Shown here piece after piece: positions 23,316 through 24,003 of a stretch of DNA of 35,320 bases. Made by a program: the position numbers and the translations under genes. Position 1 is the first letter of the stretch. Each line of letters opens with the position of its first letter. This DNA is from a virus (lineage: Duplodnaviria > Heunggongvirae > Uroviricota > Caudoviricetes). Under the pieces are notes generated by a model, which was given only the letters and a program-made list of their open reading frames with translations, searched no databases and was not told where the DNA came from. The stretch is from the IMG/VR virus record IMGVR_UViG_2606217174_000009; one strand, given 5' to 3'.

Positions 23316-23660
23316 ATGACTCAAAACTATGAACTGATTGTGAAAGGGATCCGCAATTTTGAGAATAAAGTTACGGTAACTTTAGCGTTACGGGACAAAA
23401 AACGCTTTGACGGTGAAATTTTTGACCTGGACATCTCGCTGGACCGTGTTGAAGGTGCCGCGCTGGAGTTTTATGAGGCAGCAGCCAGAAGGAGCATCAG
23501 ACAGGTCTTCCTGGATGTTGCTGCCGGGTTATGTGAAGGGGATGAGCAGTCGCCGGAAAAGCGCCCCGTAATTTTAGAGGCGCAGAATGTATGGATAACC
23601 TACAAAGGAAAGCTACCGGGAAGAATTACTGGTTCTCTGAAGACTCCACCGAAATGGTAA
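23316..23660 (+). CDS. Hypothetical protein (114 aa) between holin and endolysin
   Basis: Starts 5 nt after the holin stop; no recognisable domain. Confidence 0.5.
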   Translation: MTQNYELIVKGIRNFENKVTVTLALRDKKRFDGEIFDLDISLDRVEGAALEFYEAAARRSIRQVFLDVAAGLCEGDEQSPEKRPVILEAQNVWITYKGKLPGRITGSLKTPPKW

Positions 23661-24003
23661 TTTTACCAGCATATTTTTCTTCCAGTAATGCCGCCAGCCA
23701 CTTGAAAGAATTTTGTTGTTCCTGGGACCATTTGGGGTTGCGTGACTCAAGCAGAAGCGATGCCAGTGTTGGTTGCATTTGTTCTCTGGGAATTTAGAAG
23801 GCCAGATATGAAAATGCAACAGTGAGGGCATTTACATCATCCCGAAGCCTGGAAATGCAGTCGAGCAACTCCTGTAGAGAAATGGTGTTATTGTCCATAA
23901 ATAATCCTCTTGATTGTCTTTACCTTTTCCCCGCCTGATTCAACAGGCCGGGACAGATAAACATATCCAGGGTTCAGAAACCGATAAATCCTGATAAATA
24001 TCC

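Follow-up and report, generated by a model that had tools for sequence, protein, structure and literature searches.

The DNA analyzed here is a stretch of 35,320 nucleotides (nt) from a virus of the Caudoviricetes (IMG/VR record IMGVR_UViG_2606217174_000009), hereafter called the window, and the element in question is the interval between its holin gene (S) and its endolysin gene (R), positions 23316 to 24003, which is part of the late region in an Escherichia-type lambdoid prophage. An original prediction, made from the sequence alone, had placed in this interval an extra gene of 114 amino acids (aa) and, on the opposite strand, a mini-ORF of 34 aa, and had proposed that they represent a moron or a lysis regulator. 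The locus is very probably best explained as a standard lambdoid lysis cassette of the phage 21 type carrying two accessory insertions (Table 1). The first is a ydfR-family gene and the second a presence/absence cassette which contains a convergent antisense gene whose frame, in this window, is interrupted. Both genes are already known, as attested by Pfam DUF1327, the NCBI name 'YdfR family', phrog_406, phrog_2411 and a RefSeq pseudogene call.

Table 1. Features of the holin–endolysin interval and its surroundings (positions refer to the window), followed by the related loci and proteins mentioned in the text
Feature	Position or identifier	Strand	Evidence or remark
SASA-family esterase gene	20414-22396		first in the gene order given
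DUF1378 open reading frame (ORF), 60 aa	22531-22713		upstream of holin
DUF826 ORF, 89 aa	22751-23020		PF05696, E 1.4e-32
S21-type class II holin (pinholin type), 71 aa	23096-23311	+	PF04971 'P21 holin S', E 7.8e-33
ydfR-family gene (DUF1327), 114 aa	23316-23660	+	PF07041, phrog_406
Predicted pseudogene of the 90-codon antisense gene (phrog_2411)	23626-23898	-	translation with one internal stop; intact 90-aa homologues
Presence/absence cassette, ~292 nt	23652-23943	.	DNA alignment; contains the antisense gene with its ribosome-binding site
Premature TAA, codon 35	23794-23796	-	alignments; intact alleles have TCA (Ser)
34-aa ORF (codons 1-34 and premature stop)	23794-23898	-	
Shine-Dalgarno sequence AAGAGGA of the antisense gene	23905-23911	-	6 nt before ATG
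Conserved endolysin leader	23944-24003	+	common to cassette-less relatives; no obvious Shine-Dalgarno sequence before ATG
Endolysin (phage lysozyme) of the signal-arrest-release (SAR) type, 177 aa	24004-24537	+	PF00959, E 3.3e-22
Rz gene	25180-25647		embedded Rz1, 25400-25585
Broken homologues of 23626-23898	proteins P0047, P0049, P0055, P0041, P0048, P0052		
Distant homologue pairs	L093 4001-4476; L098 3989-4436; L100 821-1325		partner ORFs of 71, 62 and 85 aa
YdfR cores with 71- or 156-residue extensions	L110, L130, L159 (IMG/VR), L003, L004		

The 114-aa ORF is present as predicted, its ATG lying 5 nt beyond the end of the holin stop codon, a spacing which is shared by all 80 IMG/VR loci encoding the closest YdfR proteins. 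These 80 loci also served for the selection estimate and for the cassette counts given below. The protein matches PF07041 (DUF1327) over its full length (145.3 bits for a cutoff of 25), residues 1-112 aligning on profile positions 1-92 of 93, as well as phrog_406 (E 1.3e-68), and an identical protein is named 'YdfR family protein' in RefSeq. The conserved core of the gene corresponds to codons 1-112, its last two codons and stop being provided by the downstream cassette. Within the IMG/VR loci, the ratio of nonsynonymous to synonymous polymorphism (pN/pS) of ydfR is 0.24, indicating purifying selection, and its guanine plus cytosine (GC) content is 47.9%, versus 54.2% for S and 55.1% for R.

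This arrangement is far from rare. The same holin type was found in 434 deposited phage records, 101 of which have YdfR and 333 of which do not; the S21-type holin and endolysin genes are adjacent in most phage records. The premise that these two genes are normally neighbors is thus roughly true, with the YdfR arrangement as a frequent variant that is also present in the cryptic prophage Qin of Escherichia coli K-12. Of the 5426 complete E. coli genomes, 4314 match some part of the 688-nt region and 1129 cover 80% of it or more. Judged from these matches, the 114-aa ORF is an ordinary, catalogued YdfR-family gene with no assigned function. The homology search bears out its conservation but attaches no known lysis function to it.

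In K-12, ydfR (b1555) similarly lies between a class II holin gene, essQ, and a lysozyme gene, rrrQ. Its product is 70% identical overall to the window YdfR, the N-terminal ~72 residues being closely similar. The K-12 protein has 103 aa and ends in a different C-terminal tail (the C-terminal 30 residues), and its gene overlaps rrrQ, whereas the window YdfR possesses a conserved 75-112 segment (…PEKRPVILEAQNVWITYKGKLPGRITGSLKTPP) followed by the antisense cassette. A literature search on YdfR/DUF1327 and on essQ/rrrQ/ydfR retrieved one relevant experimental paper, in which it has been shown, by two-hybrid and pull-down experiments, that residues 1-72 of K-12 YdfR interact with the catalytic, N-terminal half of RNase E (PMC13232886, 2026). 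The protein was also co-purified with RNA (PMC13232886). Since ydfR is located 5 nt downstream of the holin gene, it would be read from the late transcript and hence co-expressed late, and its translation may be coupled to that of the holin. Because the N-terminal domain of the K-12 protein binds RNase E and because RNA co-purifies with it, the target of YdfR late in infection could be the turnover of host RNA and not the lysis machinery, a role which we propose tentatively. Two observations weigh against it: the RNase E link was measured for K-12 YdfR only, whose C-terminal 30 residues differ, and overproduction of this protein altered few transcripts (PMC13232886).

A second possibility is that YdfR controls lysis timing or the endolysin by pairing in the cytoplasm with the pinholin/antiholin or with the SAR endolysin; its constant position between S and R would thereby be accounted for. 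Its invariant place behind the holin stop codon and the purifying selection on the gene are consistent with such a role, as is the importance of ydfR for envelope integrity in a genetic screen (cited in PMC13232886). However, YdfR has no transmembrane or signal segment by hydropathy (maximum 19-aa Kyte-Doolittle mean of 0.69 versus 1.70 for the holin) and thus lacks the membrane or periplasmic character of lysis regulators; searches of PADLOC and NCBIfam assigned it to no family of defence or lysis proteins, it is missing from the majority of the phage records with the same holin type, and its K-12 counterpart, when overproduced, caused no growth or lysis phenotype (PMC13232886). Lysis control by YdfR is accordingly considered unlikely, and less likely than the role in RNA turnover, and YdfR itself is, as predicted from its hydropathy, a soluble DUF1327 protein. 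The label of lysis regulator is unsupported because neither YdfR nor the antisense protein has a membrane segment and because most phages with this holin lack ydfR.

The antisense ORF was reported in the original prediction with the correct peptide and the correct AAGAGGA Shine-Dalgarno sequence, its coordinates being off by one base. With 57 ORFs of 25 aa or more overlapping positions 22000-26000, a 34-codon ORF means nothing in itself, and it is the homology to an intact 90-codon gene which identifies it as real, but as a fragment. The minus strand from 23898 to 23626 contains a 90-codon frame with a single internal TAA. This stop results from a one-base difference, G to T at 23795 (plus strand), which turns the Ser35 codon TCA into TAA, and the window copy is thereby split into a 34-codon stub and a 50-codon downstream remnant. 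The gene is convergent with ydfR, the two 3′ ends overlapping by 35 nt. An uninterrupted 90-codon gene is found at the same place in phages vB_EcoS-783R2 and Chlobot and in many E. coli genomes, and the 90-aa hypothetical protein of phrog_2411 (RefSeq WP_000369848.1 type) shares locus, strand, Shine-Dalgarno sequence and length with the window gene. The DNA around the gene in Chlobot and 783R2 has 95% mean column identity to the window, and the 90-aa proteins of Chlobot, vB_EcoS-783R2 and phiSTEC1575-Stx2k are 83-91% identical to the repaired window sequence. In contrast to the phage copies of phrog_2411, the window copy has a TAA at codon 35 in place of an intact 90-codon frame and is therefore classified as a pseudogene. 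The Prokaryotic Genome Annotation Pipeline (PGAP) likewise calls a pseudogene with 'internal stop' in a 100% identical sequence of NZ_CP042892 and in a 99.3% identical one of NZ_CP116925.

The distribution of the stop further supports this assignment. The window and 86 related loci together yielded 25 distinct nucleotide alleles; the frame is open over all 90 codons in 24 of them, and the sole interrupted allele is that of the window. Similarly, an exact-pattern scan of IMG/VR retrieved the stop allele in at most 8 stretches, one of them recognizably of this prophage type, and the intact allele in at least 120. On this comparative evidence, the 34-aa 'mini-ORF' is an artefact of a premature stop, corresponding to the 5′ fragment of a 90-codon gene, and the antisense gene is predicted to be dead in this window. 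The antisense frame is hence conserved, as 90 codons and not as 34. Other broken alleles occur in public genomes (Table 1): the codon of the invariant Trp57 is a stop in three sequence backgrounds, and at least two distinct frameshifts are seen as well. Breakage of the 90-aa gene may reflect either recurrent loss or spread by recombination.

That the 90-codon frame encodes a protein was assessed from its pattern of variation, in which variable sites at codon positions 1, 2 and 3 number 16, 14 and 38, and pN/pS is 0.31 over the 25 alleles. It speaks against the coding assignment that pN/pS cannot separate this frame from the plus-strand frame which shares its wobble positions and has a value of 0.26; the ratio alone is thus indecisive, because the plus-strand frame scores equally well. 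It could accordingly be argued that the antisense 'gene' is non-coding and represents a shadow ORF opposite a coding or structured region of the plus strand, all the more as this plus frame is open in 19 of the 25 alleles and as a promoter scan found none for the antisense gene. Yet the plus frame has stops at scattered positions in the other 6 alleles, begins with either ATG or GTG and has a composition rich in Cys, Ser and Trp, whereas the minus frame retains its ATG and exactly 90 codons, the GAGGA core of its Shine-Dalgarno sequence being kept in every allele seen. In addition, no signal of RNA structure emerged when the R leader and the convergent overlap were folded (z of -1.2 and -0.07, respectively). 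A non-coding origin is, in our view, very improbable, and the minus-strand frame was chosen on stops, on the start codon with its Shine-Dalgarno sequence and on distant homologues.

The protein itself provides the remaining evidence. An intact relative matches phrog_2411 from position 1 to 90 of 90 (E 2e-56), and a profile search of 1.84 billion representative proteins returned 20 hits only, including far more divergent proteins of 81-97 aa which share the motif ELL..I..LR..VN.L..AFSYLAFS…E…PT…L.FES and which, with their far lower identity, come from unrelated genomic surroundings. For the 90-aa protein, the AlphaFold2 model is a three-helix bundle with a predicted local distance difference test (pLDDT) score of 80, that is, a confident helical fold. 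No family above threshold was obtained in Pfam, NCBIfam or PADLOC, and Foldseek searches of the model against PDB and BFVD gave no match at E <= 0.001. The maximum 19-aa hydropathy is 0.88, consistent with the absence of a transmembrane segment. We conclude that the 90-aa protein is a genuine small protein family (phrog_2411), whose intact product is probably an acidic cytoplasmic accessory protein. The least probable reading of all, that the 34-aa ORF is a functional micro-protein or type I toxin-like peptide antisense to the late transcript, can appeal to a strong Shine-Dalgarno sequence with an ATG, to the frequency of small toxic peptides in prophages and to a sok RNA elsewhere in the window, but it has against it the rarity of the stop allele both among the 25 alleles and in IMG/VR, the absence of any Rfam family in 23000-24700, and a peptide which is acidic (isoelectric point 4.05) and amphipathic, is not membrane-like in its hydropathy (maximum 0.66), represents helix 1 in the predicted three-helix fold and differs from the short hydrophobic membrane peptide with cognate antisense RNA that characterizes type I toxins.

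Inside the tail operon of another prophage, a member of the 90-aa family is again antisense and convergent. Distant homologues were each found to be convergent with a small coiled-coil-like ORF, with overlaps of 7-20 nt (Table 1). One such pair (L093) lies between tail genes M and L of this other prophage, on the strand opposite to the tail operon. A second homologue neighbors terminase genes, and a third has chromosomal, non-phage surroundings. A C-terminal 'LK.PP' common to YdfR and to the 71-aa partner ORF was considered and set aside as a coincidence, as it did not recur in the other contexts.

The antisense gene is part of a discrete segment. In DNA alignments with phages 640R1 and BP-4795, the window contains ~292 extra bases, whose boundaries are exact and extend from directly after YdfR codon 112 (…SLKTPP) to ~60 nt before the endolysin ATG. 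Comparison with related lysis cassettes confirmed that the segment varies behind a ydfR gene whose position is fixed: among the 80 loci, the cassette is absent from 39, which have a 116-aa YdfR and a 63-nt gap before the endolysin gene, and the 90-codon gene is present in 36, including 34 with the same 343-nt gap between the ydfR stop and the endolysin as in the window. The GC content of the cassette is 42.8%, well below those of S and R. Furthermore, a near-identical YdfR core is joined at SLK(T/M)PP to four different downstream modules. One of the alternatives consists of a 71-aa C-terminal extension of YdfR with an unrelated antisense gene of 86 aa, and another of a 156-aa extension with an unrelated antisense gene of 104 aa. 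Profile comparison found the 90-aa family unrelated to these 86-aa and 104-aa proteins (probabilities of 0.9% and 0.1%), for which Pfam, NCBIfam and PADLOC likewise yielded no hit above threshold. A 'DUF1823' label in phage PhiR5_1 was discarded as sub-threshold (15 bits versus 25).

These data suggest that the cassette would have been inserted exactly after YdfR codon 112, bringing a 90-codon gene that is convergent with ydfR and whose predicted product is an acidic, cytoplasmic protein of three helices. The cassette appears moron-like: about half of the closest relatives have it, unrelated antisense genes take its place elsewhere, and its GC content is lower than that of its neighbors. Lambdoid morons such as lambda bor, in the concept of Juhala and Hendrix, are accessory genes located at precise gene boundaries in a late operon. 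The window cassette shares with these the opposite orientation of its gene, a deviating GC content and a patchy distribution among relatives; unlike them, it has no identified promoter or terminator, and the 3′ end of its gene overlaps ydfR by 35 nt. It weighs against an autonomous moron that no sigma-70-like promoter or intrinsic terminator was detected on the minus strand around 23600-24003, where inspection by eye found only weak TTGAAT/TAAAGA-like hexamers. Rfam returned nothing in 23000-24700, and neither the R leader nor the convergent overlap showed excess RNA stability. Independent expression of the cassette is presumed rather than seen, because no convincing promoter or terminator and no RNA family or unusual RNA structure were found. 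As far as sequence comparison goes, 'moron' is nevertheless a fair label, because the cassette is a presence/absence element and other phages have nothing or unrelated antisense genes at this place. This part of the original prediction fits, given also that ydfR is missing from about three quarters of the records with this holin type.

A more specific interpretation of the …SLKTPP junction is that it constitutes a dedicated exchange point, at which a C-terminal extension of YdfR is exchanged together with a convergent, 3′-overlapping antisense gene, the 90-aa protein being the lysogen-expressed half, for example, a partner or antagonist of YdfR/RNase E, or an exclusion or defence factor. Taken as a whole, this proposal is doubtful. 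If it were true, the repeated inactivation of the gene by nonsense and frameshift mutations would reflect a cost upon prophage domestication. The modular junction is the least ordinary aspect of the locus, and nothing shown so far goes beyond ordinary mosaicism.

The value of these results is mainly corrective. Insertions are common between S and R in cassettes of the S21 type, and a short ORF with a good Shine-Dalgarno sequence should not be named a mini-gene until the possibility of a truncated allele has been checked.

With regard to the remainder of the lysis region, the window resembles the S21-R21-Rz/Rz1 cassette of phage 21 in its PF04971 holin, which has a dual start (Met1/Met4), in the SAR-like N-terminus of its endolysin, which is hydrophobic over residues 9-27 (maximum 19-aa Kyte-Doolittle mean of 1.87), and in its embedded Rz1. 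It differs from phage 21 by the two genes inserted between S and R and by a spacer of ~640 nt between R and Rz/Rz1 (24538-25179), which contains a strong terminator-like hairpin near its start (24628-24660; 15 pairs, then a T-run) and several tiny hydrophobic ORFs, such as that at 24830-24961 (43 aa). In a closely related prophage, this spacer carries RefSeq hypothetical proteins of 43, 51 and 28 aa, and in other phages its position is occupied by ant. Directly 5′ of the holin gene, the DUF1378 and DUF826 genes are conserved late-region passengers with no assigned function. The 63 nt before the endolysin ATG (23941-24003) have 17% variable columns, the lowest value of the non-coding segments in the region; the leader has no recognizable Shine-Dalgarno sequence, and its folding revealed no significant structure (z -1.2).

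The window as a whole is a mosaic. The NZ_CP042892 prophage, which contains the 688-nt region with 100% identity and in which the holin is annotated as a 'class II holin family protein', aligns with the window only over 19998-27493, at 93.9%, and an identification of the window with this prophage was rejected on that ground. For the same reason, the NZ_CP042892 annotation was used only for the identical 688-nt region. Positions 12000-35320 are covered to at most 58% by any complete E. coli genome in the collection. Outside the lysis region, Rfam models above their gathering scores identified DicF small RNA (sRNA) on the minus strand (4713-4764; 76.7 bits) and, on the plus strand, sok antitoxin RNA (13433-13607; 107 bits), three transfer RNA genes (19689-19935) and STnc100 sRNA (20043-20240; 135.7 bits), which lies just 5′ of the esterase gene.
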